A stretch of 64,000 nt of DNA from Trueperaceae bacterium (GTDB lineage: Bacteria; Deinococcota; Deinococci; Deinococcales; Trueperaceae). The stretch is taken from NCBI GenBank assembly GCA_965213705.1, contig OZ243913.1, forward strand, positions 3,840,001 through 3,904,000, written 5' to 3'. Below the pieces are notes generated by a model, which saw only the letters and a list, made by a program, of their open reading frames with translations, did not search any database and was not told where the DNA came from. Position numbers and translations under genes: made by a program. Shown in pieces: positions 9,916 to 63,842 of the stretch. Numbering within the stretch: position 1 is the stretch's first letter; every line of letters begins with the position of its first letter.

Positions 9916-11007
9916 TCAGCCGCCCGGCGCATTGGGTAGAAAGAAAAAAGCCACGCCCAAAATCGCGTAAACGCCCAGCAGCATGAACCCTTCCAACCAG
10001 TTCGTCTCGCCGTCGCGCGCGACCGAGTTAGCTATCAGAACCGCGCCGATGAGGGCGATGAGTTCCAACGAGTTGTTCAGCACCAGGTCCATCGGTTTAC
10101 CTATCAAAAACGACACAATAACGAGAATCGGCGCGACGAGCAGGGCGACCTGCACGGTCGAGCCGAGCGCGATGGTGACAGCCAAGTCCATCTTGTTCTT
10201 CATCGCAAAAAAGACCGCGGCGGCGTGTTCGGCGGCGTTGCCGACGATGGGGATGATGATGAGGCCGACAAAAAACTCTGACAGACCGAAGGCTTCGATG
10301 AAACCTTCTAAAGAGCCCACCAAAAACTCTGACATAAAGCCGACCAGAACCGTTGCGCCGAGAAGCACGCCGAGCGCGAACAGTGGGCTCCAGGCGGCGG
10401 TGTGTTCCTCGCCATGCTCGTCGTCGGCGGTCGACAAGTAGTCTCTGTGGGTAAAAAGCGTAAAGACGATGTTGGCGACGTACAGCCCGATGAGGATGAA
10501 CGACACGCCGAGGGCCAAGCGGGCGTCGTCTACCCTAATTTCGCTCGCGGCGACCCCAAAGCTGCGCTCGGTAAAGTCGAACAGGGCGGGCACCAAAAAG
10601 GCGATGACCGAGATGATGAGCAGGCTTGCGGTCACTTGCGCGTTTTGGGCGTTGAAGCGCTGCTGCGGGTAGCGCAAACCGCCCAAAAAGATAGAGAGCC
10701 CAAGCACGAGCAGCAAGTTGCCGAGAATCGAACCCGTTATCGACGCTTTAACCACGTCGAACTTGCCCGCGTTCAGCGCGAAAAACGCGATGATGAGTTC
10801 GGTCGCGTTGCCGAAGGTCGCGTTCAAGAGCCCGCCGACGGTCGAGCCGGTGCGCACCGCCAACTCTTCGGTCGCGCGGCCCATCAGTCCGGCCAGCGGC
10901 AGAATCGCCAGCGCCGAAACCCCGAAAAGCCAGGTGTCGGCGACGTGGAGGGCCTCGAGCACGAACGCCACAGGCACGAAAACGAGCAGAAAATTCATAG
11001 CGTGCAA
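9916..11007 (-). CDS. cax: Calcium/proton exchanger (CaCA family)
   Basis: GNATE and GNAAE alpha-repeat motifs, 10-11 TM; ATG at 10998 is an alternative start. Confidence 0.93.
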   Translation of the reverse strand: MHAMNFLLVFVPVAFVLEALHVADTWLFGVSALAILPLAGLMGRATEELAVRTGSTVGGLLNATFGNATELIIAFFALNAGKFDVVKASITGSILGNLLLVLGLSIFLGGLRYPQQRFNAQNAQVTASLLIISVIAFLVPALFDFTERSFGVAASEIRVDDARLALGVSFILIGLYVANIVFTLFTHRDYLSTADDEHGEEHTAAWSPLFALGVLLGATVLVGFMSEFLVGSLEGFIEAFGLSEFFVGLIIIPIVGNAAEHAAAVFFAMKNKMDLAVTIALGSTVQVALLVAPILVIVSFLIGKPMDLVLNNSLELIALIGAVLIANSVARDGETNWLEGFMLLGVYAILGVAFFFLPNAPGG

Positions 11008-45411: not shown

Positions 45412-46652
45412 TCAGTTGCACTGCCCAGACGCGTTGGGGTCGGACCTGAAAATGGGCGTCATAGCGGAGCAGCCGGGGCCGGAAGCTTTCACGTCACCGC
45501 CGCCGTCAAACAAAAGTCCGTACTGCGCCCCCGAGTGTGCGAGCCCGTCGCCTAAAAACACGGTCGCGGCGGGCGGCTGGTTGCCGAAAAACGTCATCAA
45601 GGTGATGCTCGCCGTTTTGTCCGAGTTGTTCGAGCTTGCCATCGTGCTGCTGCCGGTACCCAAGAATGACGTGTGCGTGAACGAGGCCGCGCCGTCGTAG
45701 ACCAACACGCCTTGCCACGCCGTGCCCGCTTCGTTCTTCAGAGCGACGGGTTTTTCTTCGGTGCCTGCGGTCGTCAAGGCGCCACCCTCAAGAACGGACA
45801 GGCCGACGTCGTTTTGGAATTCGACCTGTACCCCCGCCTCGAGCGTCAGCTTGTTCTCGTTTTCGACGGTCAAGTCGGGTCGGCTCGACGTCTCCAAGAC
45901 GAGCCAAGGCGTACCGCCAAGGGCCTGCCAGCTCACATCCCCGACGACCTGACTGTACCGGGGGTTTATATAAACCCTGTCGTCGCCGTTGCCCGTGTAG
46001 CTGTTAGTGGCGAGCAGGTAGTGGGCCGCTTGTGTGTCGGTGTAGACCGGGGCGAGGGCGTTCGCGCTCAAGGTGTTGCCGCTAAAGTTGGGGAGGGTCG
46101 CATTATAGTAAACGAACAAACCGTAGCCCGCGCTCTCCCGCAGCGTGCTGTTGCGCATCGTAAGCGTGTTGTCGCCCTCAACAGCGAGGTTTGCGGGCGC
46201 GGTGTAGTTGGACGAGGTCAGGTCGCGACTTCCGCCGTACTCAACGGTCACGTGTTCCAGCGCGGCGGTCGCGGTGCCGCCCAGCGAAAGGCCCGCCCAG
46301 TACCCTCTGGACGCATTCGTGCCGGTCAGGATAATGGGCTTCTCGGCGGTGCCCACGGCGACTAGCTTGCCCGACTCGCGTACAAGGAGCGCGCGCCCCT
46401 CCTCGAACGCCACCACGACGCCCGGCTCTATTGTCAGGGTTCCGGCCCGCACCTCGATGTTGTAGGTAAACGCGAACACGTCTTTAGCAACGTAAAGGTT
46501 TCGCCCACCGCCAAGGTGCTCTGCGCGGGCGGCGCGATGGTGACCGAGCGCACGCCGCCCTCTTCCAGGCCCCCACAGGAGGCGGCGGTCAGGAGCAAGA
46601 CGAGAAAGTTGAGGGTAACGAAGCTGATGAGCTTTGTTGCTTTTGAAAACAT
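45412..46652 (-). pseudogene. Disrupted lipoprotein with right-handed beta-helix domain
   Basis: Signal/lipobox AASC in 46434-46652 is out of frame with the beta-helix ORF 45412-46479 (LTIEPGVVV, GTAEKPIILTG, WAGL). Confidence 0.65.
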
Positions 46653-46700
46653 GGCGGTTCCTTTCGGGGTGAGGCGGGAAGGTTCCCGCCTCTGAGGGAT

Positions 46701-49172
46701 TTAGAACTCGGCGCAGACGCCGTCTTGAATATTGAGAAAAGCCAAAACTTCTCCGGTTTGGGCGTTTTTATAGCGGTAGCCCGGACCGCAGACGCGGCCT
46801 TCGCCGCTCGGTTTAGTCTCCGAACCGGTTGTGGTAACGAAGGTGTTGCCGTGCAAGTAGAGAACAGGAGAGCCGGGGCCTCCAGAACGGACGTCCCTGA
46901 TAGCCCAGTCGGTCCCGCTCGCGTTGCGAAAGGTGTTACCGCCGGGCTCCGACACCGTTCCCAAATCCAGACCTGTCGGGGTGCCAGAGAGATAGAGGTT
47001 GTTCCCCCCGCTGTTTTCCAATATCACATCTCTAAGCCTGAGCGACTTACCCGCAAACCAGACGCCGCTGGCGTCGTTGGCGGAACTGTTCATCCCGTCC
47101 GAAGCGATAAGCGTGGTGCCACCCTGAACGTTAATACCTACTGCGCTCTGGGTGTAACTACCTCCCTCGAGGATGACCGTTTTCGAAGTTTCTGCGTACA
47201 GCGCGTGACTCGTCGCTTTACTCGACGTTACCCTGCGAAGAAGCGCATCGGCGTCACCCAGCACAACGACACCGTTTGAGTTCGAGCCGAAGGTACTGTC
47301 TTCAGCAGTCGCGCGAAGATTGCCGCTCAGATACAAACCAGCGTTGTCCAGGGTACTTCCAGAAGAACGACGTCCTGCATCTTCCGACGTAACGCCTCGC
47401 ATTGTCAGAACGCCCGAAACAACCTTGATGTTGCTAAGGCCGCTACTTTCTACAACGACATTTTTCAGTTCGCTACCGGGGCGCACGCTCTTCATGTCGA
47501 AGCCGTGGGTAGCGCTGTAGGTAACGCTCGAGTCCTGCACCTCGAACAAGCTGCGGTAGGTTTTTATGCCGGTGCCGTTGTTGCTAAAGGTGCTCCCGGA
47601 AACAAAAGCCGACCTGGGGTCTTGGACGATGGACAGGTTCAGCCCCGTCACGTTGTCGTTTATGACCGATTTCACCAAGTTGAGTTTGGCACCAAGTATA
47701 GAAACGCCGTACTCGAAGCCGCTGATGTCGCAGCCCGTTAGGTTGACGTCACCGCCGACCTGCTCACCAAAGGCCACGTTCACACCGCGCCCCGCCCCCT
47801 TGCCGACGAAGACCGAGTCTTGCGCCGTCACGCGGCCACCCAAAGAGGCCACGCAAATGTCGCTCTTCGCGCAACTTACGTATCGCATGACGAGTTCGCT
47901 GTCAACATCGAGGTCGAGCACCGTCGCGCCGCCTGTAACGCTCAAGTCGAGCAGGGTCAGTTTGGCTCCGTCGAGTTTTAAGAAGGCTTGACCGTCAAGC
48001 TCGAGCACCGTATCCGTTTGCGACGCGCCGACAATTTGCAGGTCTTGTTCGAGCGTGTAGCCGAAGGGTTCGTCCCCACCCTGCGCGTAGGTTCCGGCCC
48101 CGAGCGAAACGCGCGTGACGCTGCCGCCCGCGGCCAGCTCGAGCGCCCGCTTGAGGGTGCGCAGCGGTCTGGCCTCGGCCCCAGTGTTGCCGTCGTCACC
48201 GTCGGGGCTGACAAACAGCGTGCCGGTGGGCTGGAGGCTCGTAACCTCGACGCTGACGCGGTCTTGCGAGCTTAAAGACCCGTCCGAGACGGTCAGTTCG
48301 GCGGTGTAGCCGCCCGGAGCGTCCGCCGTAAATGTGGGGCTCGCCGTGTCCGCGCCGGTCAGTGCGGGCGCGTCGGCGCTGTTCTGCTCGGGCCAGGTCA
48401 GCCACGTCCAGGTGTAGGTCAAGGTGTTGCCATCGAGGTCTGAAGAACCGCTTCCGTCCAAAGTCACGGTCGCACCCTCTTGCACGACTTGGCTCGAGCC
48501 CGCCTCGGCGACGGGGGGTCGGTTGGTCGCGTTCGGGGCTCGAGCCGTCACCGTGACGGTGTCGCTGGCGCTGTTTACGCCGTCCGAAACGGTAAGGTTC
48601 GCCGTGTAGACGCCTTCGAGGTCGGCGGTGAAGCTCGGCGTGACGCGCGAGGCGTCTGAAAGGGCCGCTGCGCTGCCCGAAGGTGCTTGAAGCGTCCAAG
48701 CATAGGTCAGGGTTTCTTTTTCGGGGTCCGAAGAGGCCGAAGCGTCGAGGGTGACGGTCGCGCCTGTTTCTACGGTTTGCTCTAAACCTGCGTCGGCGCG
48801 GGGGGCGCGGTTTTGCGGTCCGCTCACGTTGACCAAGAGGCTGTCGCTGGCGGACAGTTCTCCGTCGGAAACGGTCACCGTAATTTCAAAGGTACCGACC
48901 ATGTCCGGGGTGAAGGTCGCCCTCACCGTGTCGCCGCTCAGACTCACGCCGCTGCCGTCCGGCTTTTTGGCGAGTTTCCAGGCGTAGCTCAGGGCGTCGC
49001 CGTCGGGGTCGGAGGAAGCGCTGGCGTCGAGTTGGACGGTCGTGTTCAGAGCGACGCTTTGGTCCGCACCGGCGACGGCCTGCGGTGCGACGTTGGGGGA
49101 GGGCACGGCGGGGCAGGCGACGAGGAGGAAGAGGAGGGGGAGGATGAATCCTATAGCTTTCAGCTGTTTCAT
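46701..49172 (-). CDS. Lipoprotein with three PKD/Ig-like repeats and a beta-helix (pectin-lyase-like) domain
   Basis: Lipobox LVAC; N.AP.A.AG..Q.V...V.LD.S.SSDP repeats; LFVSPDGDDGNTG...PLRTL..AL motif. Confidence 0.85.
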   Translation of the reverse strand: MKQLKAIGFILPLLFLLVACPAVPSPNVAPQAVAGADQSVALNTTVQLDASASSDPDGDALSYAWKLAKKPDGSGVSLSGDTVRATFTPDMVGTFEITVTVSDGELSASDSLLVNVSGPQNRAPRADAGLEQTVETGATVTLDASASSDPEKETLTYAWTLQAPSGSAAALSDASRVTPSFTADLEGVYTANLTVSDGVNSASDTVTVTARAPNATNRPPVAEAGSSQVVQEGATVTLDGSGSSDLDGNTLTYTWTWLTWPEQNSADAPALTGADTASPTFTADAPGGYTAELTVSDGSLSSQDRVSVEVTSLQPTGTLFVSPDGDDGNTGAEARPLRTLKRALELAAGGSVTRVSLGAGTYAQGGDEPFGYTLEQDLQIVGASQTDTVLELDGQAFLKLDGAKLTLLDLSVTGGATVLDLDVDSELVMRYVSCAKSDICVASLGGRVTAQDSVFVGKGAGRGVNVAFGEQVGGDVNLTGCDISGFEYGVSILGAKLNLVKSVINDNVTGLNLSIVQDPRSAFVSGSTFSNNGTGIKTYRSLFEVQDSSVTYSATHGFDMKSVRPGSELKNVVVESSGLSNIKVVSGVLTMRGVTSEDAGRRSSGSTLDNAGLYLSGNLRATAEDSTFGSNSNGVVVLGDADALLRRVTSSKATSHALYAETSKTVILEGGSYTQSAVGINVQGGTTLIASDGMNSSANDASGVWFAGKSLRLRDVILENSGGNNLYLSGTPTGLDLGTVSEPGGNTFRNASGTDWAIRDVRSGGPGSPVLYLHGNTFVTTTGSETKPSGEGRVCGPGYRYKNAQTGEVLAFLNIQDGVCAEF

Positions 49173-49185
49173 GGTGCCCGCCCTC

Positions 49186-51564
49186 CTATCCATAGATAAT
49201 GGAGACAAAGAAAGAGACGATACTTTCTTTGCTGCGCCCTTGGTCGTCAGTGACTCGTACGCGAAGTTTGACTTCGTGGCCTTTTCCGTCGACAAAGGTT
49301 GCCGCAACAATGTCATCTGTGTCGAACACCGCGTCCAGCGTCCGGCCGCTGCCGAGGGGTTGCCAGGTGGACTTGCCCGCCAACTGGAAAGACCAGACAA
49401 TGTCGCTGTCCGCCACACTGCTTGAGTCAACAAAAGCGGCCATACTGAGTGTTTGCTCACCATCAGACCATATAAACTCTTGGTTAGACACAGGATCAGT
49501 GATGACGACGCCCGGCGGATAACCACCTGGGGCGGGCGCTGTGACGGTGACTGTCACCGTCTTGGTCGCAGTGATTGGCGCTGCGCCGCTGTCCGTGTAG
49601 CTAGCGGTAATCGCTTTTTGCCCCTGCGCAAGGATTTTTGACAGGATGCCTGCGCCTACGCCGCTTGTACCGTCCTCGACAGACCACTCGATAAGGCGAC
49701 TGTTCGCATTTTTTCCCGTAAAGTCTTTGCAGGTTGGGTCGCTGACGCTGGCGCGCAGCTCAAACGGCTGACCCTCGCCGACGCTCGTGGTGGGTACCTC
49801 TTCAAGGGTCAACTCCGGCGCACGGTTTGTAACGTTCACCGTCACCTTGTCTTCGGTCGTTTGCCCTCTATTGTCCGTCGCGCGTACCGTGAGCGTGCGG
49901 TTACCGGGGCAAAGCGCACGGTAGCCGCTAGCCCCGCCGTCTACAGGTATTGGGTTGATGAGGTCACCCAACCGCTGTCCAGCTTCGTCGAACCACGCGA
50001 CCTCGAGGGGAAGTCCTTCCGGGTCGAGCGCATCAATCGTAAAGTCGATAGCCTCGGCCTCAAGAAAGCTCGCTCCGTCTTTAGGCGAGGTGATGTCGAC
50101 GCTGGGCGGCAGGTTCTCGGCGCACTTGATAAGTTCGCGCTTTTCGGTGAACACCTTGTCGTACTCGGACAACTCACCGATAACCGGCAGTTGCACGCGG
50201 TAGCCGTAAGAGGCGTTGTAACCGCCGTAAACGCACCAGGTGGGGTCGCGCGGGAAGGCGGCGTCGCCCTCGACGAAGAGCCGCGCAGTGAGGGTGCCCG
50301 CTGCTGTCGGCGCGCTGTAAAGACCGACGGCTAAGCGCGCGCCCGTGTAGGCCCTGGCCGACGCGCTTCCTTCCAAACCCGGCCTGGGCACGTCGCTCGT
50401 GGCGCTCGGCGTCCAGATGTCTTGCCAACCCTTCGCTTTGGTGTAGCGCGCGCCCACGTCGAGCGAGGCGTTCTGGGTCGCGGTAGCCAACATCCTGCCG
50501 CCCACCTCGCCGTAAGCCCCAACAAAAATTTCTATGTCTACGTCGATGACGACCGGCACGGGACCGATAAAGAAGGTGTGAGTCGCCACGTCGATAACGG
50601 CGAGCGTGGTCTCGTCTTTGAAACTGTAGTCGCCCACGGCGCTCAGGGTGGTGTCGACCTGCTCCTCTAGCAGCACGCTCACCTCGAACACGTCTACAAA
50701 CGGCTCGGGCGGCAAAATGCCGTCCCAATCTATGTTCACCACGAGGTCCAGCGTCGCGTTGAAGCTGAAGGTGCCGCTCAGGGTGATGTCCAGCGGGTCG
50801 GCGTCCAGCAAGACTTCGTTGAAGTTGTAGGAAAAGTCGAAACCCGCCGCCTGCGTCGCCACCACGCCCGGCAGGGCGTTCTGCGGCGCTGCGCCGTCAG
50901 GCTTGAGCCGCGCGCTGAAGCTCCCTTGCGCTCGCGTCACGGCGTCGGTGAGTTGGGCTTGCTCGGCCTCGAGCACCACCCCGCCACCCTCGTTGCGCTT
51001 AGAAACGACCTTGCGCAGAAAGCCGCTCGGGGCCGCGCCCGCTATGGGTTCGCTCACCAGCACGTCGCCGGGCTCCAACTGGGCCAGCAGCGGCGTCTCG
51101 GCGCTGAAGCGCAGCGTGCCGTCGCTCTCAAAAGCGCTCAAGCTCCGTTTGGTCGCCTCGTCGGTGACGTGGGTGGTGTCGGGGATGACGGCGGCTGTCG
51201 GCGTGGCGCTCTGGGCAGCGGTCTGGGCCGACTCGTTGCCGGCCACGTCTTTCGCGGTCAGGGCGAAAAAGTAGGTGCGACCGTTTTGCAGCCCCGATAC
51301 TGTATAGCTCGTAGCATCTTTGTCGGTAGTGGCAATGGCCGTAAGGGCCGCCACAGCCTCGCCTTGATAGACGCTGTAACCTGCCAAGTCCTCTTCGGCG
51401 TTGGCGTCCCACGACAGCAGCACCTGGCCGTCCGCAGCGCGGGCGCTGAAGTTTTGGGGCGTTTCGGGCGCTTGCGTGTCGCCGGGCTGTCCACCCCCGT
51501 TGCAGGCGACGACGAACAAAAGTAAGGTCGAAGCGATGATGCTTTTTACAACACTCAATCTCAT
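49186..51564 (-). CDS. Lipoprotein with fibronectin type III and Ig-like domains
   Basis: Lipobox VVAC; Fn3 LSW...Y.V.GL.NG..Y.F...A.D.AGNES. Confidence 0.85.
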   Translation of the reverse strand: MRLSVVKSIIASTLLLFVVACNGGGQPGDTQAPETPQNFSARAADGQVLLSWDANAEEDLAGYSVYQGEAVAALTAIATTDKDATSYTVSGLQNGRTYFFALTAKDVAGNESAQTAAQSATPTAAVIPDTTHVTDEATKRSLSAFESDGTLRFSAETPLLAQLEPGDVLVSEPIAGAAPSGFLRKVVSKRNEGGGVVLEAEQAQLTDAVTRAQGSFSARLKPDGAAPQNALPGVVATQAAGFDFSYNFNEVLLDADPLDITLSGTFSFNATLDLVVNIDWDGILPPEPFVDVFEVSVLLEEQVDTTLSAVGDYSFKDETTLAVIDVATHTFFIGPVPVVIDVDIEIFVGAYGEVGGRMLATATQNASLDVGARYTKAKGWQDIWTPSATSDVPRPGLEGSASARAYTGARLAVGLYSAPTAAGTLTARLFVEGDAAFPRDPTWCVYGGYNASYGYRVQLPVIGELSEYDKVFTEKRELIKCAENLPPSVDITSPKDGASFLEAEAIDFTIDALDPEGLPLEVAWFDEAGQRLGDLINPIPVDGGASGYRALCPGNRTLTVRATDNRGQTTEDKVTVNVTNRAPELTLEEVPTTSVGEGQPFELRASVSDPTCKDFTGKNANSRLIEWSVEDGTSGVGAGILSKILAQGQKAITASYTDSGAAPITATKTVTVTVTAPAPGGYPPGVVITDPVSNQEFIWSDGEQTLSMAAFVDSSSVADSDIVWSFQLAGKSTWQPLGSGRTLDAVFDTDDIVAATFVDGKGHEVKLRVRVTDDQGRSKESIVSFFVSIIYG

Positions 51565-52069
51565 CGGGTAGCTCCTAAACTGTGGTTTGAAGTGAATCAA
51601 AGTCGGTTGTTAGTCGGGTGGATAGTCCTGTCGGCAAAACCGTCAGTGAACCGAAGCGCGGTGAAAAAGCGTTTGAGAATTGAAAGTCGAAATCGACCAG
51701 CGTGAAGCTGGCGCTCTACCGCAAAAAGTTACCTGGCGCTGAACGCTCGACCCTGCGCACGGAACGCCGTTGTGCCTAGCAGCAGGTTGTGCTCGGCTGT
51801 CGTCAAACTAACGAGATGCTGATTGGGTGACGTCTGAGCTGTGCGACCGGCTCATGACCGTCCGCCGTTTTTAGCTCACGACACACGTGTGCGGCCTGCC
51901 GTCTTCGTTACGGCCATCGGTACATCGACCCCTCCTCCCACAACCCCTCTTGCACACTTTTCTCATCGACCAGGTAGGCCCAAGTTACTTCGGGTAAGGA
52001 TTGACGTGCCATAGGGCATTCGCCCTATACTTGAAGGGGGGGCTGCTCATAGCGGAGGAGGGATGGGGC

Positions 52070-53381: not shown

Positions 53382-54341
53382 TCACCCTAAACTACCCTCG
53401 AGCTTTCCCGGGTGATGCTTGCGCCAGTAGCGCGTCACGCCCAGCACGGTCATAGCGTAGTTGCTGGTGAGTTGGTGGCGCGCGACCACTTCCGGCTGAG
53501 CGTCGTCGGCTTTCAGTTCGGCGTTGCCGTAGTCGGCGATGCGTTTCGTCAGCGCCGCGTCGTCTTCGCCCGCCCGCATCCCCTCCAAAATCACCTCGGC
53601 CCAGGCCCCGTTGCGCTCCGGCACGCGGCGCAGGTGGGTCTCAGGGTCGGTAACCTCGCCGAAGTGGGTCAACAGGAGGCGCTTGGGTTTGGCCTCGAGC
53701 ATGGTTTGCGCAGTCTCCCGCCAGGTTTCCAGGTTAATTTCGGGCGGCGGCAGGGCGGGGCGGACGACTGACGAGCCCCCCAGGTGAATAGCGGCGGCGT
53801 CGCCGGTAAAAAGGGCGTCCTCGTTCAGCAAGTAAGCCACGTGGTGCGAGGCGTGGCCCGGCGTGTAGATGACCTCGAACACGTGCCCGCCGAGTTTCAG
53901 GGTCTCGCCACCTTGCAAGGGTTTGATTTGCGCCTCGGGTATGGGCGTCATCGGCCCCCAGAGGGTGTCCATCATGTCGCCGTAAATGCGCGTGGCGCTC
54001 GCCATAAGTCGACTCGGGTCGATGAGGTGGGGTGCGCCGATTTCATGCACGTAAACCGTTGCGCCGGTTTCTGCAGCAAGTGCGCCCGCCGCGCCCGCGT
54101 GGTCTAAGTGGATGTGGGTGAGGAGGATGTTTTCTAAGTTTTCCAACTCGAAGCCCGCCTCGGCGACACCCGCCTTGACGGCCCCCAAGGTCGAAGCCGG
54201 CCCCGTCTCGACGAGCGAGAACTTACGGCCCTCGCCCGGCACCAGGAACACCGCCACCGTGCCTTCGTTGCCCATGTGCCGGGAGTCGATGACGTACACG
54301 CCGTTCAAATCCTCAACGCTCGGGATACTCACATAGGCCAT
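53382..54341 (-). CDS. MBL-fold metallo-hydrolase
   Basis: THIHLDHAG, PGHASHH, TGD, THFG. Confidence 0.93.
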   Translation of the reverse strand: MAYVSIPSVEDLNGVYVIDSRHMGNEGTVAVFLVPGEGRKFSLVETGPASTLGAVKAGVAEAGFELENLENILLTHIHLDHAGAAGALAAETGATVYVHEIGAPHLIDPSRLMASATRIYGDMMDTLWGPMTPIPEAQIKPLQGGETLKLGGHVFEVIYTPGHASHHVAYLLNEDALFTGDAAAIHLGGSSVVRPALPPPEINLETWRETAQTMLEAKPKRLLLTHFGEVTDPETHLRRVPERNGAWAEVILEGMRAGEDDAALTKRIADYGNAELKADDAQPEVVARHQLTSNYAMTVLGVTRYWRKHHPGKLEGSLG

Positions 54342-55102
54342 CAGTCCGCAGCTTCAACCGTATTGGTAAGCGTGCCGATGCCCTCGACCGTCACCTCGAC
54401 CGTATCACCGATTTGCAGCGGGCCGACGCCCTCCGGCGTGCCGGTCAGCACCACGTCGCCGGGGTGCAGGGTCATAAAGGCGCTGATGTAGCTCAGCACT
54501 TTTGGTAAATCGAAGATAAAGTCCTTGGTGTTGCCGTCTTGCTTCACCTCGCCGTTGACGCGCGTCTGCACGCTCAGGGCGCTCGGGTCCAGGTCGGTCT
54601 CGAGCCACGGACCCACCGGCGCAAAACCGTCTGCCGACTTGCCGCGCGTCCACTGGAGGTCGGCTTTTTGCTTGTCGCGCGCGGTCACGTCGAGGGCGCA
54701 GGTGTAGCCGAGGACGTAGCTCAGGGCCTCGCCTTCGGAGACGTTTTTCAATTTGCGCCCGATGACGGCGGCAAGTTCGCCCTCGTAGTGGAGGTTGCTC
54801 GTCCAGGACGGGTAAAAAATTGGGTCGCCGGGGTTGGCGAGGGTGTTGAGGCCTTTTAAGAACAGGCCCGGCTCGGTCGGCAGGTCGGAGCCACCCATCT
54901 CGCGCACGTGGTCGGCGTAGTTTTTGCCGACGCAGATAATGACCCGAGGCTCGCAGGGCGCGAGGAGGGTCACCTCGGAAAGTTCTACGGTCTCCCCCGT
55001 TCGCTCGCCCATCATCCCGCTCAGTTCGTGAATTTTGCCGCCCTCGAGTTCACCCCAAGACGCCGTTCCGGCGTCGTCCTGCTGGTACTTCACACGTTGC
55101 AT
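54341..55102 (-). CDS. Fumarylacetoacetate hydrolase family protein
   Basis: [31 protein letters not shown]. Confidence 0.93.
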
Positions 55103-55156
55103 GGTCAGCCTCCTAAGTCCAAGGCATTTTATCCGGTTGGACTCGCCCGGAGGCAA

Positions 55157-56035
55157 CTAAAACGCGTAGCGCACCGTGCAGTAAGGCACGACCTCGGCCA
55201 TCAAATCTTTGAGCGCGCGCACCTGCCGACCCTTAAACCCACTTCGGTAGCGCACGTTGTCGCCGCCCATCTGCGAGGTCTTCGCCTCCTGGTTGTGCGG
55301 CGTCCAGAGGAGTTCTTCGGCTTTCGGGTGCCAGCCCAGATTGACCTCGTGCAGTTGCTCGTTGTGAGTTAAAAAGATAACCTCGGCTTTGAGTTGGGCC
55401 TTGGCCGCCTCTGAAAGTGTGTCGTCGACCTCGGTCAGCAGCGCGCGGTAGTCTTCCAGCCAGCCGTCGTAAAGGACGACCGGGCTCAGGTTGAGGTGAA
55501 CTTCGTACCCTGCCGCGACGAAGTCGCTGACGGCGCTGATGCGCTCACTCATCGGCGAGGTGCGCACGTCGACGGTTTTGGCGACTTTCTGGGGCATGAG
55601 CGAGAAGCGGACGCGCGTTTTGCTTTGGGGGTCGTAGCTTAGCAAGTCCCGGTTGACATACTTCGTCGCGAACGAGGCTTTGGCGTTCGGCAGCGTCTTA
55701 AAGAGGGTGACGAGGTCGCGCACGTTGTCGCTTATGAGTGCGTCCACCGAACAGTCGCCGTTCTCACCGATGTCGTAGACCCAGAACGTGGGGTCGGTCT
55801 GGGCCGGGATTTTGGGCTCGAGGGCGGAAGCGTGTTTGCTGATGACTTTTTGGATGCCTTCGATGTTCACGAAAGTCGTGACGGGGTTGGCGTAGCCCTT
55901 GCGGCGGGGCACATAGCAGTTGTGCGTCACGACCCCGTTTGCCAAGTAGCTTTCGGGGCCGGGTACGTGAAAGTTGTAGACTTTGGCAGGGCCTTTGACA
56001 CGCTTTATGCGCTTGACAGGTTGATAGTTGAGCAC
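55157..56035 (-). CDS. Split spore-photoproduct-lyase-family protein, C-terminal part: 39-aa C-intein fused to 253-aa C-extein
   Basis: GAGGAGG RBS + GTG; VYNFHV...YLANGVVTHN|CYVPRRKGYANP; SPL-family YDIGENGD, FATKYVN, RVRFSL, EVIFLTH. Confidence 0.92.
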   Translation of the reverse strand: MLNYQPVKRIKRVKGPAKVYNFHVPGPESYLANGVVTHNCYVPRRKGYANPVTTFVNIEGIQKVISKHASALEPKIPAQTDPTFWVYDIGENGDCSVDALISDNVRDLVTLFKTLPNAKASFATKYVNRDLLSYDPQSKTRVRFSLMPQKVAKTVDVRTSPMSERISAVSDFVAAGYEVHLNLSPVVLYDGWLEDYRALLTEVDDTLSEAAKAQLKAEVIFLTHNEQLHEVNLGWHPKAEELLWTPHNQEAKTSQMGGDNVRYRSGFKGRQVRALKDLMAEVVPYCTVRYAF

Positions 56036-56899
56036 AGTCCTCCTCGAGGTGACAAGTGGTTAAACAAAACTGTCTGTGGTGTGGCAAAAACGTCACAAGT
56101 GGTGACTTCTGTAACAAAGTTTGCGAGAGCCGCCACACGAACATGATGGGCAAGCCGTGTAAAGCCTTTTATTCTTATGCTCAAGCCGCAGCTTACTTGG
56201 GTAAAGACAGCCGTACCATACGCAAGTACGAACACGTTCTTTTTGTCATCGACAAATCTCTGACCAACAAGCACGCTAGGTTGAGAAGCTGTAAGGTTTG
56301 CGGCGGACTGTTCAAGTCGTTCGAGAACAGGAACGGCTATTGCCCGCCTTGCTCGCAAAGGGGCGAAGGGCGCAAAAATCAAGCGAGAGTGTTGTCGCAG
56401 CAACACCAGGGTGAGGGTAACCCCAACTACGTTGACGGCAGCGCCAAGCAAACGTTCAGACACCTTGGCACAGGTAAGGCTTGGGCCAGAGCGGTTCTCG
56501 CACGTGACGGCGTGTGCCGTTGTTGCGGGAGCGACAGCGACCTTCAGGCGCACCATGTTCTCCCCAACGCCCTCTTCCCGGAGCACGCCACCGACGTTAG
56601 CAACGGCGTTACTCTGTGCGGCCATCATCACACAGAACTTCATCTTGCTCGTTTAGATCTCCTGCTTTTACCCAACCTCTACGCGTCCACAGAGGGTGGT
56701 CCGCCGTTACACGAAGCGTTGTGTCGCCAAGCTCAATTTCAAGAACTTCGTCAACGTCCCTATAAGCCGTTCCGGAAACGACGGCTGTTACGAGCCGTTC
56801 CGAAGAACTATCGAAGGCAACTACTTCGGATCCATCCTGAATTTGCTCGACAGGTACTGGGCCTTGCGGCGTCGTGACGAGGGTGCCTTCGGCCACACA
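55919..56899 (-). mobile_element. Split intein plus antisense HNH endonuclease cassette (981 bp)
   Basis: Runs from intein Cys1 (56897-56899) to terminal Asn (55919-55921); excision restores CAMACAYC. Confidence 0.9.
56056..56877 (+). CDS. HNH endonuclease with N-terminal zinc-finger/HTH-like modules (putative homing endonuclease)
   Basis: RDGVCRCCG...LQAHHV...DVSNGVTLCGHHHTELH; two extra CxxC..CxxC clusters; GEGNPNYVDG; GAGGTGA RBS. Confidence 0.88.
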   Translation: MVKQNCLWCGKNVTSGDFCNKVCESRHTNMMGKPCKAFYSYAQAAAYLGKDSRTIRKYEHVLFVIDKSLTNKHARLRSCKVCGGLFKSFENRNGYCPPCSQRGEGRKNQARVLSQQHQGEGNPNYVDGSAKQTFRHLGTGKAWARAVLARDGVCRCCGSDSDLQAHHVLPNALFPEHATDVSNGVTLCGHHHTELHLARLDLLLLPNLYASTEGGPPLHEALCRQAQFQELRQRPYKPFRKRRLLRAVPKNYRRQLLRIHPEFARQVLGLAAS

Positions 56900-57199
56900 G
56901 TAGGCGCAGGCCATCGCGCAGCCGTTGCTGGCCCCCGGCGCTATAAAGTCGGCGCTGCGCCCGTTGACGCGCACCGGCAGCGACTTGCGCACGCCTAAGA
57001 CGAGGGTGTCGCGTTTGATGCGCACCCAGTCCTCTACCGAGCCCTCGTTGCCGTGGAGGCTTGGGATATTCCAGTGTGACGGTACTTCAATCCGCTCGGC
57101 GTCGGGAAAGCGGGCCAGGATGTCCTGGCCGCGCGGGTAGCCGGGGACGCTAGGCTCGAGATAAATCTTCCCGACCTTGAGCATCGAGTCCGTGAGCAT
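56609..57199 (-). CDS. Split spore-photoproduct-lyase-family protein, N-terminal part: 100-aa N-extein fused to 96-aa N-intein
   Basis: NGCAMACAY|CVAEGTLV (block A), TADHPLW (block B), GWVKAGDL, then TAA; ATG overlaps upstream stop (TGATG). Confidence 0.92.
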   Translation of the reverse strand: MLTDSMLKVGKIYLEPSVPGYPRGQDILARFPDAERIEVPSHWNIPSLHGNEGSVEDWVRIKRDTLVLGVRKSLPVRVNGRSADFIAPGASNGCAMACAYCVAEGTLVTTPQGPVPVEQIQDGSEVVAFDSSSERLVTAVVSGTAYRDVDEVLEIELGDTTLRVTADHPLWTRRGWVKAGDLNEQDEVLCDDGRTE

Positions 57200-58287
57200 C
57201 AAGTCCAGTACAGCACGCGCGCCTGCGGAAAACGCCGGGCGATTTCAGCCTCGAAGAAGGCTTTCAGCTCGAGCATCACGTCTTTGGTGTACACGTACTT
57301 CGTGCCGCCGAACTTGTTGCGCTTGACGCTGCGGCTCGACTCGTCCAAGTCGAGCGAGGTGTTCGGGTACCAACTCAGCAACACCTCCTTCGAACCCGGC
57401 GTAAAGCGGTGCGTGATGAGTTCGAAGGTGAGGTCGCAAGGAAAGTCGAGCGCGGCCTCTATCTTGTCGAACAGGTCCGTGTAGTGCGCGCGCCAGTCCT
57501 CGCCGGGCATAATCGGCGCGACGACGAGCCCGACGGGATAGTCGGCCAGCGCGAGCTTGCGTAAAGCTTGCAAGCGCTTCTCGACCGAGGCGGTGCCGCC
57601 TTCCAAGCGCTCGACCGGCGCGGCGTTGACCGAGGCCCTGGCCCGCGTGTGACCGTGGTGGGGCACGTCCAGCAAGGGCTCGACCGCGTCGAACTTGCTC
57701 ACATAGCGCAACCGTGCGTTCTCCAAACCTCCGAAGTGCCGAACGCACTCGCTCAGGGAGTGGGTGAGGTGCTCTAAACCCAGCGGGTCGGTGTAGCAGC
57801 TCACCTCGAAACTCGTCTCGCGGTCCGGCTGCAAGTAGTTGGTGAGGTTGTCCAAAATCTCGTGCAAGTTCGCGTACACCTTTGTCACCGGCGGCCCCGA
57901 CAGCGACCCCGCGAGGTAACAATATTGGCAGTGCGCCGGGCAACCCTGGGCTAGGTGAAACTGGTAGTCGGCCGACGGCGGGATGGGCTGAAGTTTGAAC
58001 TGCGACGGCGGCGCGGTCACGACCGCGAGCGTGCGCTTGGCGAGCCGGTAGGTCTCGCGCTCGGTCTCGCCGCGCAAACCGGTGATGCGGTTACTGCTGA
58101 GTTCCACGGTGGGCACGCCCAGTTCGGTGACGCGCTCGAGAATCCGCCGCCCGTGCTCGTGCTTCAGGGCGTCGGGCGTAAACAGCGCCCGCTCGGGCAG
58201 CCACAGTTTGGGGCGGCCGGTCTTGGTTTTGACGGAAGGTGCGACGAAAGGGGCGGAAGTGCCGACGGTCGGCAGGGCGATAGCCAT
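57199..58287 (-). CDS. splB: Spore photoproduct lyase-like radical SAM protein (intact)
   Basis: GCPAHCQYCYL, FEVSCYTDPL, APIM, ITHRFT, NKFGGTKYVY. Confidence 0.88.
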   Translation of the reverse strand: MAIALPTVGTSAPFVAPSVKTKTGRPKLWLPERALFTPDALKHEHGRRILERVTELGVPTVELSSNRITGLRGETERETYRLAKRTLAVVTAPPSQFKLQPIPPSADYQFHLAQGCPAHCQYCYLAGSLSGPPVTKVYANLHEILDNLTNYLQPDRETSFEVSCYTDPLGLEHLTHSLSECVRHFGGLENARLRYVSKFDAVEPLLDVPHHGHTRARASVNAAPVERLEGGTASVEKRLQALRKLALADYPVGLVVAPIMPGEDWRAHYTDLFDKIEAALDFPCDLTFELITHRFTPGSKEVLLSWYPNTSLDLDESSRSVKRNKFGGTKYVYTKDVMLELKAFFEAEIARRFPQARVLYWT

Positions 58288-58341
58288 AGTGCTCCTTTGT
58301 GGGGGTTGAGAGACGTGAAAAGAGGGGGCGAAAAACCCTGA

Positions 58342-58364
58342 TTTGCTATACAAATTATAGCAAA
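58342..58364 (-). promoter_or_regulatory. Extended -10 promoter overlapped by a palindromic operator candidate
   Basis: TTTGCTATA-N5-TATAGCAAA; minus strand reads TG-C-TATAAT. Confidence 0.6.
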
Positions 58365-58434
58365 CGGGCGGGCTCGAGTTGGAGCCCAACTCACAGTTCA
58401 GCTAGTTGAGTTTCATCGTCCAGCACGCATTTTC

Positions 58435-60336
58435 TCAAACCTTTTCAGCGAGGCTTTCGGACGCTTTTTCCCACGCCGCCATCGCGCTCAGCAGGTCTTT
58501 TTCAAGCTCGGTGTGACGGGTGCCAAGCTCGGTGATTTGCTCCGCCGTGAGTGCCGCCGTGTCGGTGAGGTGTTGCGTCACTTCTGCCAGGTCGACCTCG
58601 AGCCCCGCAATTTTGTCTTCAAGGTCGGCCAGGTCGCGCTCGAGCTGCCACTTTGACGGCCCCTTCGTCGCCCTGTTCTGAGGTCGGGTCTCGGCACGTT
58701 CTAGATTGGCACGCTCAACGTCGGCCTCGGCTTCCATGCGCTTAAACTGGTAGTAGTCCCAGTCGCCGTCGTAGGTTGTCAGCGCGCCGCCGCCAAGTTC
58801 CCAAACGAGGTTCGTGGTTTCTCTGATAAACCTGCGGTCGTGCGAGACGACGAGCAGCGTGCCTTCAAACGCGGCCAGGGCCGCCTCCAACGCCTCGATC
58901 ATCTCGACGTCTAAGTGGTTTGTCGGCTCGTCCAACACTAGGAAGTTGTGCTCGCCCAGGGTGAGTTTTAAGAGCGCCAACCGCGCCCGCTCGCCGCCGG
59001 AGAGGTTTTTGACGAGCTTGAACTGCGCTTCATACGGGAACATGAAGCGACCCAACAGGTTGTGCGCCTCGGTGTCGCCGACCATGCGAATCATTTCCTC
59101 GAGCAGCGTGTTCTCCGGGTCGACGCCGCGCAACTCCTGGTCGTAGTAGCCAACGCGCACCCGCGCGCCGTAGCGCAGCAGCGCGCGCGGGTCGTCGCTC
59201 GTTAGGTTGCCCAAGAGCAACTTCAAAAATGTCGACTTGCCCGCCCCGTTCGGCCCGACCAGCGCGACGCGTTCGCCCTGGCGCAACGTAAAACCGACGT
59301 CGCTAAAGAGGCACTTGGTCCCGAACGCCTTACCGAGGTGCTGGGCTTGCAGCACGACGTCGCCGCTCTCGTGACTTTGAAAACGAAAGCGCGTGCTGCC
59401 CTGTTCGCGCTCGGCCTCGCCCAACATCGTGTCTTCATAGCGCTCGAGCCTTTTAAACATCGCGCGTGCGCGGCGGTGCAGTTTTTCGTTTTGCCCGGCC
59501 CAACTTTTCATGCGCTCGGCAGCGGTTTCCAGGCGTTCTTGCTCGCGCGCCTGGTTTTTGCGGGTCAGCGCTTCGACGGCGAGTTGTTCGGCGCGGTAGG
59601 CGCGGTATTCGCTCGGCGTGCCCTCGTAAGAGCGCAGGTTGCCAAAGGCGATTTCGGCGGTGCTCGAGCAGGCCCGGTCGAGCATGTCGCGGTCGTGCGA
59701 GACGATTAAGACCGCGCCCGGATAGCGGCCCAGGTAACCCTCCAACCAGGTGCGCATCGCCATGTCCAGGTGGTTCGTCGGCTCGTCGAGCAGCAGCACG
59801 TCGGGCTGCGCCATCAACAACTGCGCCAAACCGAGCCGCGTTTTCTCGCCGCCGGAGAGGCTTTTGGCAAGTTGCCCCTCCCGCCCCCGGAAGCCGAGCG
59901 CGTGCAGCACCATGTCGCGCCGCGCCCTGCGTTCGTAGCCGCCGCGCCGCTCGAAAGTTTCGTGCAAGCGTTCCCAAGCTTCGTAGACCTCGGGTTGGTC
60001 GAGGCCCCGGTGCTCGAGCTTCTCGAGCCGTTTCTCGAGCGCGTCCAGGTCGGCGAAGGCTTGTTCGGAGACCACTAAAATACTCGCGTCCGGCTCGAAC
60101 TGCGGGTCTTGCTCGAGCTTCGCCAGGGTTACGCCGTCGCGCACAAAGACCGCGCCGCCGTCGGGTTCGACCCGGTGGGACAACAGGTTTAAGACCGTGC
60201 TCTTGCCCGCCCCGTTGCGCCCGACGAGCGCGGTGCGCGAGGCGGCGCGCAGCTCGAGGTTCGCCCCTTCCAGCACGGTTTGTTCGCCGAAATACTTGTC
60301 GACTTTTTGGAGACCGGCTAAAAGCATAGCCTCCAT
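58435..60336 (-). CDS. ABC-F family ATP-binding protein
   Basis: Two NBDs (GRNGAGKS, LSGGE, DEPTNHLD twice), no TM, C-terminal coiled coil. Confidence 0.93.
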   Translation of the reverse strand: MEAMLLAGLQKVDKYFGEQTVLEGANLELRAASRTALVGRNGAGKSTVLNLLSHRVEPDGGAVFVRDGVTLAKLEQDPQFEPDASILVVSEQAFADLDALEKRLEKLEHRGLDQPEVYEAWERLHETFERRGGYERRARRDMVLHALGFRGREGQLAKSLSGGEKTRLGLAQLLMAQPDVLLLDEPTNHLDMAMRTWLEGYLGRYPGAVLIVSHDRDMLDRACSSTAEIAFGNLRSYEGTPSEYRAYRAEQLAVEALTRKNQAREQERLETAAERMKSWAGQNEKLHRRARAMFKRLERYEDTMLGEAEREQGSTRFRFQSHESGDVVLQAQHLGKAFGTKCLFSDVGFTLRQGERVALVGPNGAGKSTFLKLLLGNLTSDDPRALLRYGARVRVGYYDQELRGVDPENTLLEEMIRMVGDTEAHNLLGRFMFPYEAQFKLVKNLSGGERARLALLKLTLGEHNFLVLDEPTNHLDVEMIEALEAALAAFEGTLLVVSHDRRFIRETTNLVWELGGGALTTYDGDWDYYQFKRMEAEADVERANLERAETRPQNRATKGPSKWQLERDLADLEDKIAGLEVDLAEVTQHLTDTAALTAEQITELGTRHTELEKDLLSAMAAWEKASESLAEKV

Positions 60337-61215: not shown

Positions 61216-63522
61216 ATGAGCAACTTAAAAGAAGCCCCGCCCGCTCCCGACGAGCGCGCCGTGAGCCCCAACTTCATCACCGACATCGTCGACGAGGACG
61301 TGGCTACGGGCAAGGTCAAAAAGGTCGTCACGCGCTTTCCGCCCGAGCCGAACGGCTACGCACACATCGGCCACGCCTTTGCCAGCCTCATCAACTACGG
61401 CGTCGCGACGGACTACCGCGGCCAGTTCAACCTGCGGCTTGACGACACCAACCCCGAAACCGAAAAAGAGGAGTTCGCCGCGGCGCAAATAGCGGACCTC
61501 GCCTGGCTGGGTTTGCAGTGGGACGGCCACCTCTACTACGCCTCGGACTATTTCGAGCAGCTTTACAACCTGGCGGTGCGGCTGATAAAAGAGGGCAAGG
61601 CCTACGTCGACAGCTCGTCCGAAGAGGAGATTCAGGACTACCGCGGCACCGTGACCGAGCCGGGCCGGGCGAGTCCCTACCGTGAGCGCACGGTTGAAGA
61701 AAACTTGGACTTGTTCGAACGCATGAACGCGGGCGAGTTTCCCAAGGGCGCGCACGTGCTGCGGGCCAAAATCGACATGGCGAACCCCAACATGAAACTG
61801 CGTGACCCGCTGCTCTACCGCATCTCGCACGCGCCGCATTACCGCACCGGCCATAAGTGGCACGTTTACCCGATGTACGACTTCGCGCACCCGCTCTCAG
61901 ACGCGATTGAGGGCGTGACCCACTCGCTCTGCTCTTTGGAGTTTATCGAGAACCGCGCGGTTTACGACTGGCTGGTCGAGAACCTGTTCGGCGAGCAGCG
62001 GCCTTACCAGTACGAGTTCGGGCGGCGCAGCTTGGAGTACACGGTCGTGAGCAAGCGCAAGCTCGCGGCGCTTATCAGCGGCGGCTACGTGACGGGTTGG
62101 GACGACCCGCGGATGCCGACGCTGGCCGGGTTGCGGCGGCGCGGCGTGACGAAAGAAGCGGTTCGGGACTTTGTGGGCCGCATCGGCGTGTCGCGCACCA
62201 ACCGCACCGTGGACATGGCGCTGTTGGAATACAGCCTCCGCGACGACTTGAACGCCAAAGCCAAACGGGTGATGGCGGTGCTCGAGCCCCTCAAAGTTAC
62301 CCTGACGAACTACGACGGTGAGGAAACGCTTCAAGCGCCCTACTGGCCGCCCGACGTGCCCAAAGAGGGTTCACGCACGGTGCCTTTTTCGGGCGAACTC
62401 TACATCGAGCGCGAGGACTTCGAGGAGAAGCCAGCTCGAGGCTTTCGGCGCTTGTCGCCGGGCGAGTCTGTGCGGTTGCGCCACGCCTACATCATCCACT
62501 GCGACAAGGTGGTCAAAAGCGACGCGGGTGAGGTTGTCGAGTTGCGCTGCACCTACTTAAAAGACTCCCTCGGCGAGACGCCCGCGGGCGTCAAGGTCAA
62601 GGGGGCAATTCACTGGGTTGCGGCCGAGGACGCCGTCAAAGCCGAGTTTCGCCTGTACGACCGACTGTTCACCGTACCCGACCCGGAGAACGGGGAGCGG
62701 GACTTGCTCGAGTACGTCAACCCGGCCTCGCTCCAAACCAAACGCGGCTTCGTCGAACCGAGCGTCCTCAGCGACCCGCCCGACACGCGTTACCAGTTCG
62801 AGCGGCAGGGCTACTTTTGGCAAGACCCCGAGGACTCAGGGCCGGACGCCCTCGTGTTCAACCGCATCGTCAGCCTAAAAGATTCCTGGTCCAAAACTGA
62901 ACCGGAACCCGTCGCGAGCGCGCCCAAAGTCGCTGCCAAACCGGGCGAGGTGCGCGACCCGGTGTTGGACTTTTCGCTTGAACAAAAGGCCAAGCTCGAG
63001 CAACTCACCACCTTAGGCGTCGCCCACGACGACGCGGTGCTCATCGCCGAAAATCCCAAGCTCACGCCGTTTTTCGAAGAGGCCGTGCGACACCACGACC
63101 ACCCGCAGGCGCTCGCCAACTGGACGGTGAACGACCTTCGCCGTGAACTGAGCGGTGACGACCCGAGCGAACTTGAGTTCGGCCCCGCGGACTTGGCCGA
63201 ACTCGTCGCCCTGGTCGACGACGGCACCATCAACACCCGCATCGCCAAAGAGGTGTTCGCCGAGATGGTCGTGAGCGGCCAACACCCGCGCAACATCGTT
63301 ACGGCGCGGGGTTTAGAGCAAGTGACCGATGCGGGCGCGCTCGAGCCCGTCATTGACAAGCTATTGCGGGACAACCCGGACAAGTTGGCAGCTTACCGCG
63401 GCGGCAAAACCGGCTTGATGGGCTTTTTTGTGGGCGCTGCCATGCGGGAGACCGGCGGCAGGGCGAACCCGCAACTGGTCAAAGACATGCTTGCGGAGAA
63501 GTTGGCGGGCTCGAGCGGGTAA
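61216..63522 (+). CDS. glnS: Glutamine--tRNA ligase with C-terminal YqeY/GatB-like domain
   Basis: RFPPEPNGYAHIGH, VSKR, FERQGYF; C-terminal GFFVG..MRETGGRANP. Confidence 0.96.
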   Translation: MSNLKEAPPAPDERAVSPNFITDIVDEDVATGKVKKVVTRFPPEPNGYAHIGHAFASLINYGVATDYRGQFNLRLDDTNPETEKEEFAAAQIADLAWLGLQWDGHLYYASDYFEQLYNLAVRLIKEGKAYVDSSSEEEIQDYRGTVTEPGRASPYRERTVEENLDLFERMNAGEFPKGAHVLRAKIDMANPNMKLRDPLLYRISHAPHYRTGHKWHVYPMYDFAHPLSDAIEGVTHSLCSLEFIENRAVYDWLVENLFGEQRPYQYEFGRRSLEYTVVSKRKLAALISGGYVTGWDDPRMPTLAGLRRRGVTKEAVRDFVGRIGVSRTNRTVDMALLEYSLRDDLNAKAKRVMAVLEPLKVTLTNYDGEETLQAPYWPPDVPKEGSRTVPFSGELYIEREDFEEKPARGFRRLSPGESVRLRHAYIIHCDKVVKSDAGEVVELRCTYLKDSLGETPAGVKVKGAIHWVAAEDAVKAEFRLYDRLFTVPDPENGERDLLEYVNPASLQTKRGFVEPSVLSDPPDTRYQFERQGYFWQDPEDSGPDALVFNRIVSLKDSWSKTEPEPVASAPKVAAKPGEVRDPVLDFSLEQKAKLEQLTTLGVAHDDAVLIAENPKLTPFFEEAVRHHDHPQALANWTVNDLRRELSGDDPSELEFGPADLAELVALVDDGTINTRIAKEVFAEMVVSGQHPRNIVTARGLEQVTDAGALEPVIDKLLRDNPDKLAAYRGGKTGLMGFFVGAAMRETGGRANPQLVKDMLAEKLAGSSG

Positions 63523-63557: not shown

Positions 63558-63842
63558 TCACCGGTAAATCTTTTTACTACCGGAGTGGCCGCCAATTCGT
63601 AACAGGTCGATGACATCAGGCTCACCGTAATCCCAAGCGATGCGGATGTCGCGGGTAACTTCAACGCTGAAAACTGGGTTGCCATCGCTGTCAAAAGCTT
63701 TGTGGCTTTTCAACTTCGGGTCGCGCGGATTGGTTTGCAACAGGACAAGGACCGAACGAACTTGCTCAGCAAGTTCAGGTTGTCTTTTGAGAAGCTTCTT
63801 GAGTTCGCGGGCAAAGCGTGGTTTGCGATTTAAAGTAAACAT
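63558..63842 (-). CDS. RelE/YafQ-superfamily type II toxin
   Basis: Basic 94-aa protein: F.RELKKL, LKSHK, DIRI, LLRIGGH; GAGGT RBS. Confidence 0.85.
   Translation of the reverse strand: MFTLNRKPRFARELKKLLKRQPELAEQVRSVLVLLQTNPRDPKLKSHKAFDSDGNPVFSVEVTRDIRIAWDYGEPDVIDLLRIGGHSGSKKIYR

Follow-up and report, generated by a model that had tools for sequence, protein, structure and literature searches.

A likely mobile split intein sharing 269 nt with an antisense HNH gene in a radical SAM gene of a Trueperaceae bacterium

The closest described systems are the fractured genes of Dassa et al. 2009 (PMC2677866). In the accessible part of that paper, the three open reading frames (ORFs) of a fractured gene lie on one strand, with a non-coding gap of 27-51 nucleotides (nt) after the N-intein and overlaps of 6-69 bp with the C-half. 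Their nucleases belong to the GIY-YIG or Vsr-like type, and the hosts are enzymes of DNA synthesis and repair, mostly of phages. Contiguous inteins with antisense LAGLIDADG or Vsr-like homing endonucleases form a second group, apparently still homing, and in the portion of the source available the additional ORF is typically located beyond the splicing domain (Gosselin et al., 10.1101/2025.01.02.630785). Inteins of SplB/COG1533 proteins number 48 in Actinobacteria in the available text of PMC4760082. The locus analysed here is part of a 64,000-nt stretch, the window, which covers positions 3,840,001 to 3,904,000 of contig OZ243913.1 from a Trueperaceae bacterium (assembly GCA_965213705.1). In it a radical SAM gene is broken by a 981-nt insert, likely a mobile homing element, in which a naturally split intein is combined with an opposite-strand HNH endonuclease gene sharing 269 nt with the N-intein. 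Trans-splicing of the host protein and cutting of empty alleles are predicted.

The split intein and the antisense HNH gene

The insert and the exteins on either side of it comprise the following features, in window coordinates.

56900..57199, minus strand: N-extein, 100 amino acids (aa), TIGR03886 family; its 3' end encodes the first two Cys of CxxxCxxC; 91/100 residues identical to the empty allele L082
56609..56899, minus strand: N-intein of 96 aa, followed by a stop; has Cys1 and a block B TxxH; net charge -13; PT-HINT E 6.8e-9; PDB intein and Hint matches including NrdJ-1
56609..56877, both strands: dual-coded overlap, 269 nt; N-intein codons 8-96 (minus) and HNH residues 185-273, including C188, H191, H192 and H196 (plus)
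56056..56877, plus strand: HNH-type endonuclease gene, 273 aa; HNH_2 21.5 bits (cut-off 21); 15 relatives at 40-64% identity; AlphaFold pLDDT (predicted local distance difference test) 89
56036..56055, unstranded: head-to-head spacer, 20 nt, with back-to-back putative ribosome-binding motifs, GAGGAGG (minus, 56045-56039) for the C-half and GAGGTG (plus, 56046-56051) for the HNH gene
55919..56035, minus strand: C-intein of 39 aa, from a GTG start to a terminal His-Asn; net charge +5; TIGR01443 E 1.2e-7
55157..55918, minus strand: C-extein, 253 aa plus stop; begins with Cys+1, the third Cys of CxxxCxxC; TIGR03886 434 bits; 232/253 residues identical to the empty allele
55919..56899, unstranded: complete insert of 981 nt; both ends coincide with breaks in the blastn alignments to L082/L001, and a different study has contigs that jump across exactly 981 nt

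The N-half ORF runs from 57199 to 56609 and the C-half ORF from 56035 to 55157, both on the minus strand. An earlier note, made from the letters of the window alone, had placed the halves there and had claimed an N-extein ending in CAMACAY, an N-intein, a 39-aa C-intein and a Cys+1, all of which can be read from the sequence. The family profiles PT-HINT, Hint_2, TIGR01445 and TIGR01443 match the intein halves, and the proposed acidic N-intein and basic C-intein are borne out by counts of 7 Lys+Arg vs 20 Asp+Glu and 6 vs 1, respectively. Block B of the N-intein reads TADH and the residues of a class 1 intein are complete, namely Cys1, block B TxxH, the terminal His-Asn and Cys+1. The break falls at the canonical split site, leaving 96+39 aa compared with 134-135 aa in contiguous relatives. 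The length given for the gap between the halves, 573 nt, is correct; however, it contains seven further in-frame stops where one had been reported, and it is no spacer without a gene, since the intact antisense HNH gene, unmentioned in the note, lies there. In the window the two halves share one frame across those 573 nt, but in 15/19 related loci and in 35/35 viral loci having both they are out of frame with each other, and because of these differing frames the split is taken as genuine. A naturally split intein on a chromosome, broken just before the third Cys of CxxxCxxC, is confirmed.

The exteins when joined amount to 353 aa and are co-linear, as had been anticipated, with the empty allele, likewise 353 aa, in a genome of the same genus. 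The predicted complex of the N- and C-inteins scored 0.86 vs 0.01 for the best control, with 100% contact agreement between runs and a partner pLDDT of at least 88. This mark was reached by 51/78 solved complexes and by 2/108 mismatched pairs. Resemblance to inteins of solved structure may account for the pass. Formation of the host enzyme by trans-splicing is the most likely outcome. The insert is also found in public data, where one sample, which may be the window's own source, has two runs whose contigs cross the element and agree fully with the window (1881 nt over 55446-57326 and 1269 nt over 55659-56927). In another study, contigs pass over the site with exactly 981 nt missing, and element pieces of ~90% identity also occur there at low depth. 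Runs X4, X6 and X7 yielded element fragments or nothing.

The antisense ORF is an HNH-type endonuclease by Pfam and profile comparison, with a middling fold match and predicted activity. The protein is laid out as a zinc-finger-like and NUMOD1-like N-terminal part, an HNH core and a helical tail of ~75 aa. The motif CxxC..HH..N..CxxH..H is present, with core residues C154, C157, H166, H167, N183, C188, H191, H192 and H196, and H166, N183, H192 and H196 are invariant in 29 sequences. HNH_2 is matched by 15/29 family members. Of the relatives found by a word-indexed search, 13 cover 84-99% of the protein, and a full search returned 36 clusters (50% identity) at E 1e-30 or better. Annotated GenBank phages gave no match to the HNH protein at E 1e-8. 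The AlphaFold model has a predicted template modelling score (pTM) of 0.55, and its best fold match is the GVE2 HNH protein (Z 6.3, root-mean-square deviation 4.8, 83 aligned residues), with HNH nucleases in the top rows. The start codons of the HNH gene and the C-half share one CATG in 8/17 loci with both starts resolved.

Dual coding and its distribution

In bacteria, few long antisense overlaps have both strands under selection, and such cases are disputed. At this locus 89/96 N-intein codons are covered by the HNH gene, of which the last 269 nt are involved. The N-intein stop is placed within the HNH motif, so that C188, H191, H192 and H196 are encoded on intein DNA, and the wobble base of the N-intein is the second codon base of the HNH gene. 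The antisense frame is free of stops in 27/28 split loci, compared with 5-7 stops in 5/5 contiguous mini-inteins. Upon synonymous recoding, the probability of an open antisense frame was 0.000-0.18 per locus (22 loci). Fourfold-site identity among the six closest loci was 0.62 (296/478) in the overlap vs 0.26 in both the C-intein (38/149) and the non-overlapping HNH sequence (121/473). The fourfold and recoding set left out L146, L149, L109 and L114 as duplicates, L152 and L118 for their broken HNH genes, and L108 because it runs off its contig.

A similar contrast appears on the tree, where the median of wobble changes was 0.22 at 39 overlap sites vs 0.41 at 47 other sites (p = 1e-5, a value that overstates independence because the loci are related). 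This tree used 23 of 53 loci after 90% dereplication, with L152 and L191 left out. The wobble constraint extends along the entire tail (0.21-0.31 by segment) and is absent from N-intein codons 1-7, which lie outside the overlap (0.53). Non-overlapping HNH sequence retains 51% amino-acid identity despite saturated synonymous sites. As far as substitution patterns can tell, the overlap is shown to be under selection on both strands.

The arrangement is not confined to the window. A profile of the HNH protein identified 58 loci, comprising 28 with an antisense N-intein, one with only a C-half before the contig end, three with a tail and no intein, and 26 with the HNH core only. All 37 viral loci identified with an N-intein profile (29 distinct inteins) carry an antisense HNH frame lacking any stop; some viral contigs are common to the two sets. 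The host families are TIGR03886-like proteins and TIGR04337 (AmmeMemoRadiSam), and insertion is always at the third Cys. Layout and register are shown to be conserved across phages, metagenomes and two host families, the overlap layout persisting down to ~30% nuclease identity. In two AmmeMemoRadiSam loci, L110 (2132-2946) and L152 (1105-2606), unrelated ORFs lie between the halves, with gaps of 1468 and 2512 nt, and these may represent a step towards uncoupling of the halves. A search of 401 genomes from the phylum of G364 with the intein profile returned G364 itself only. The genomic context of two tail-bearing proteins, P0061 and P0062, was not found in viral contigs.

Some other intein-like sequences were encountered in these searches. 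L194 (1507-2172) was considered as a family member and rejected as an unrelated stand-alone Hint protein with a short C-terminal domain, resembling a fragment of a bacterial polymorphic toxin. In the genome of the window but outside it, a GyrB-like gene (G000:C1 ~784217, minus strand) carries an intein at a DSAGG|C site with an in-frame HNH-like stretch, and its frame appears to end shortly past a His-Asn-containing segment. A 631-aa protein, P0028, which we take to be a phage head-morphogenesis-like protein, has a long intein insert weakly related to the C-intein of the window.

Mobility, origin and rival explanations

The distribution of the element is patchy. Related host genes (n=80) are empty in 74 cases, five carry a mini-intein of 134-135 aa and one is cut by the contig end. 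A full-length host gene occurs in 4/36 same-family genomes searched and is empty in 4/4. The HNH gene is present in 1/364 genomes of the phylum, and once in the genome of the window. The host C-extein groups with a same-genus empty allele (92% identity, support 100, syntenic flanks), unlike the intein, which groups with L099 and P0026 (support 95/90). The share of guanine and cytosine (GC) at third codon positions is 0.46-0.69 in the element vs 0.81-0.85 in the exteins. Patchy distribution and tree discordance fit homing, from which cleavage of the empty allele is predicted, and the element looks recently acquired. The codon following Cys+1, with its third base at position 55913, reads TAT in the window; TAC is found in 8/8 empty alleles shown and TAT in 4/5 other split loci shown. 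This may be a one-base co-conversion, a possibility confounded by GC content.

In the proposed mechanism, an operon transcript would yield the N-extein joined to the N-intein and, from its own ribosome-binding site, the C-intein joined to the C-extein. The halves would pair, helped by their charges of -13 and +5, and undergo class 1 splicing, through which Cys+1 would become the third ligand of the [4Fe-4S] cluster and the host would tolerate the insert. The HNH protein would be made from a separate antisense transcript starting within the C-half gene and would nick or cut the CxxxCxxC-coding DNA of empty alleles, allowing the element to be copied in. It is likely the HNH gene that split the intein and that spreads it. 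At the origin of the arrangement, a free-standing HNH gene may have inserted backwards at the canonical intein break point, leaving its last motif residues on the end of the N-intein. Read-through would then have created a tail of ~75 aa from the antisense of older intein sequence, with selection on the tail following. The partners would likely part now and then, giving contiguous mini-inteins or free HNH genes that retain the tail.

The homology of the intein side to ordinary Hint domains makes the direction of the overlap's origin readable. HNH relatives lacking the tail stop a median of 12 aa past the last His (66 proteins with the motif). For both of these reasons the tail of the HNH protein is most likely the younger, overprinted reading. 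Three loci, L102, L106 and L113, have a tail-bearing HNH gene, and they fall at three places among the overlapped copies in a tree including eight tail-less relatives. The L102 tail has a deletion not found in the overlapped copies of the same alignment. Such positions and the deletion fit an escape of free HNH genes, and suggest that the tail has a function of its own. When folded alone the tail is predicted at pLDDT 76, with five models spanning 54-76. A comparison with 48,161 chains gave nothing reaching Z 5 (the top value was Z 2.6), and BFVD likewise yielded no match at E 0.001, which does not in itself show a new fold. At L106:1-485 the free tail-bearing HNH gene is 59% identical to that of the window and broken on its 5' side, where it adjoins what we take to be the start of an insertion sequence (IS) transposase.

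Ten contiguous mini-inteins nest within the split clade, and their wobble bases resemble the overlap (0.44 vs 0.28 expected), with an antisense score reached by 0-9/300 recodings; this memory is weaker under a stricter permutation (p 0.04-0.30 per mini-intein). They likely arose by re-fusion of split inteins. An HNH invasion of a Chloroflexota mini-intein had been considered and was dropped, since those mini-inteins nest within the split clade. An invertible segment restoring a contiguous intein was likewise rejected, as the borders have no convincing inverted repeat (the best is 27 nt at 70%) and the HNH motif itself is located in the overlap. Taken as a whole, the wider proposal is that the nuclease gained a new, folded and selected domain of ~75 aa from the antisense of a splicing domain. 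The interlocked genes would then have jumped jointly from one radical SAM family to another, and also between phages and bacteria of several phyla, with repeated divorce into re-fused mini-inteins and tail-keeping free nucleases. We regard this proposal as evenly balanced between acceptance and rejection.

Several observations weigh against the homing-element reading or this account of its history, among them the weaker memory just given and the relatedness of the loci behind the site tests. The HNH_2 score is barely over its cut-off and the fold match is middling (Z 6.3; Foldseek best E 0.039). A promoter scan for the HNH gene found 0 sigma-70-like sites, terminators were at chance level, and the C-intein of the closest loci has no synonymous constraint marking an HNH promoter. 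No RNA dataset was listed as containing the element, which speaks neither for nor against expression. Two split loci have a broken HNH gene, through a stop in L118 and a frameshift in L152. The tails of L102, L106 and L113 stand opposite no intein, so that the tail is not confined to the overlap, and the antisense of these loci has no intein signal above the null (76-153/300 shuffles reach it). The escape of free HNH genes is inferred solely from nested tree positions. Finally, the intein tree (34 rows) has no outgroup, and a single origin is not rejected (approximately unbiased test, p-AU 0.079).

Other explanations of the locus are less probable. The earlier note proposed a domesticated switch in which splicing responds to redox state or stress, which can be framed as gating by redox or Fe-S supply; the CxxxCxxC of the N-half, completed by Cys1, might hold back splicing through a disulfide or through metal binding. 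N-precursor residues 92-158 match the Radical_SAM profile (E 0.055), every insertion seen is at the third cysteine, and in P. abyssi MoaA a disulfide between Cys1 and the N-extein blocks splicing under oxidation, according to the available text (PMC10663303). That precedent, however, bonds Cys1 to an N-extein Cys and not the +1 Cys, as far as the same text goes (PMC10663303). The host gene is empty in all four same-family genomes with a full-length copy, which argues against domestication, and the element looks recently acquired. In inteins a conserved Cys codon serves as +1 nucleophile and homing site, and its conservation here is equally needed by the intein. A homing element accounts for the patchy distribution better than does a redox or stress switch, which we consider improbable, although redox sensitivity could be a side effect in a homing element and the two readings are compatible. 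A dead or dying locus is a shade less probable again. Here a dispensable gene would have been knocked out, with halves that do not splice, a silent HNH gene, or both, while the SPL-like gene upstream (SPL, spore photoproduct lyase) carries on alone. The host gene is probably dispensable, because it is full-length in only 4/36 same-family genomes. The putative ribosome-binding motif of the C-half lies just 3 nt before its GTG, and relatives have broken HNH copies. Against this, none of the three frames is disrupted and no motif residue of the intein or the HNH protein is missing. The exteins, which share 91-92% of their residues with the empty allele, carry no lesion, and purifying selection acts on both strands across the family.

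Joining of the halves at the RNA level into one contiguous intein, whether by a self-splicing intron, read-through or frameshifting, would suit the shared frame in the window; yet the seven gap stops, the C-half's own start and the differing frames of the relatives speak against it, and Rfam found no family at threshold over 54000-59000, making this very improbable. As for an assembly error or chimera of a contiguous intein, the two runs with the exact element come from one sample, which is possibly the source of the window. Single contigs nonetheless span the element without differences, ~90%-identical pieces occur in another study, and the layout recurs in dozens of unrelated contigs, by which this explanation, of negligible probability, is already refuted. 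The homing-element reading is strongly preferred. If the wider proposal is true, this is a traceable de novo birth of a domain by antisense overprinting with the ancestral, overlapped and released states all extant, and split inteins are shown reverting to contiguous ones. The element offers a direct test of the origin of new domains by overprinting and of the origin and reversion of split inteins, and of whether maturation of an enzyme is controlled by an intein seated at its Fe-S motif. In addition, at least 23 distinct natural split-intein pairs with Cys+1 (90% dereplication) are candidates for trans-splicing tool screens.

The host gene, its neighbourhood and known systems

The host had been described as a DNA-repair enzyme, a label that fits the gene immediately upstream better because that gene matches a solved SPL at E 1e-73.

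57199..58389, minus strand: uninterrupted SPL-like radical SAM gene; probable start ATG 58287; TIGR04070 321 bits (cut-off 400); PDB SPL 4fhc E 1e-73

The split gene is, by profile, a member of the uncharacterised TIGR03886 paralog family. The N-extein matches TIGR03886 profile positions 2-94 (152 bits) and the C-extein positions 83-346 (434 bits), while empty alleles score 581-599 bits vs a cut-off of 437.55. On TIGR04070, the SPL equivalog (cut-off 400), the host halves reach 36 and 84 bits, below the cut-off, and the solved SPL matches the C-extein at E 2e-6. The equivalent of the SPL hydrogen donor C140 in the C-extein may be Glu52 (72/79) or Cys56 (62/79), where the alignments are gapped. 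A reading in which the host lacks the donor Cys was dropped as the C140 equivalent falls in that gap. A literature search for TIGR03886, covering little of the subscription journals, found no paper.

The stop of the SPL-like gene overlaps the start of the N-half (TGATG), and the two genes are therefore likely translationally coupled. The SPL-like gene adjoins the TIGR03886 paralog here and in 3/4 same-family genomes having both, suggesting a two-enzyme system; among the 80 genome loci an SPL-like neighbour at E 1e-20 is found in only two. The flanking genes are ordinary chromosomal ones (FAA hydrolase, metallo-beta-lactamase fold, SPL-like, ABC-F and GlnRS), and the first four are syntenic in the same-genus genome with the empty allele. 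The GlnRS (61216-63522, plus strand) is fused to a GatB/Yqey domain, a fusion found in Deinococcota. Further along, a 94-aa ORF at 63558-63842 (minus strand) has no Pfam match and reads like what we take to be a RelE/ParE-type toxin of a bacterial toxin-antitoxin pair. Large lipoprotein-like genes, whose domains include PKD, fn3 and beta-helix types, follow one another over 45412-51600 (minus strand). Window positions 1-10000 have a GC content of 0.45-0.54 vs ~0.62 elsewhere and are likely an acquired island.

A literature search whose coverage left out most subscription journals and supplements turned up no account of an antisense HNH gene overlapping a split intein. Antisense homing-endonuclease inteins were reportedly the subject of work by Gorbalenya in 1998, as relayed by Gosselin et al. 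In the available part of PMC7090010, neither 'radical' nor 'lyase' occurs. Inteins in radical SAM or SPL-like proteins as such are known from P. abyssi MoaA (PMC10663303; Callahan 2011), SplB/COG1533 (PMC4760082) and NCBIfam NF038136; for MoaA and SplB/COG1533, the accessible text describes neither a split intein nor an antisense nuclease (PMC10663303, PMC4760082). Spore photoproduct lyase, as far as the available source shows (PMC3467042), shares the CxxxCxxC radical SAM fold with the host, which the C-extein match supports. The host differs from it as a TIGR03886 paralog whose neighbour is far closer to SPL.

The hidden HNH genes of ShiLan phage methylases resemble the present element in being homing insertions with an HNH in another frame of doubly open DNA. 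In the portion of that paper available, they differ in lying on the same strand (frame 3), with no splicing domain and an unsplit host gene (PMC11855218). The inteins of Gosselin et al. are alike in having the nuclease on the strand opposite the intein, whereas here the intein is split, with seven further gap stops, and the nuclease overlaps 89/96 N-intein codons, a comparison limited to the accessible text (10.1101/2025.01.02.630785). The likeness to the fractured genes of Dassa et al. 2009 is that a host enzyme gene is broken by a split intein with order and locus kept, and that a free-standing endonuclease gene lies between the halves (PMC2677866). From what the available part of that paper describes, the Trueperaceae locus departs in having an HNH nuclease, its antisense orientation, the 269-nt overlap with the N-intein, radical SAM hosts and a chromosomal copy. 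It is a variant of the Dassa 2009 fractured genes that differs in strand, overlap, nuclease type and host (PMC2677866).

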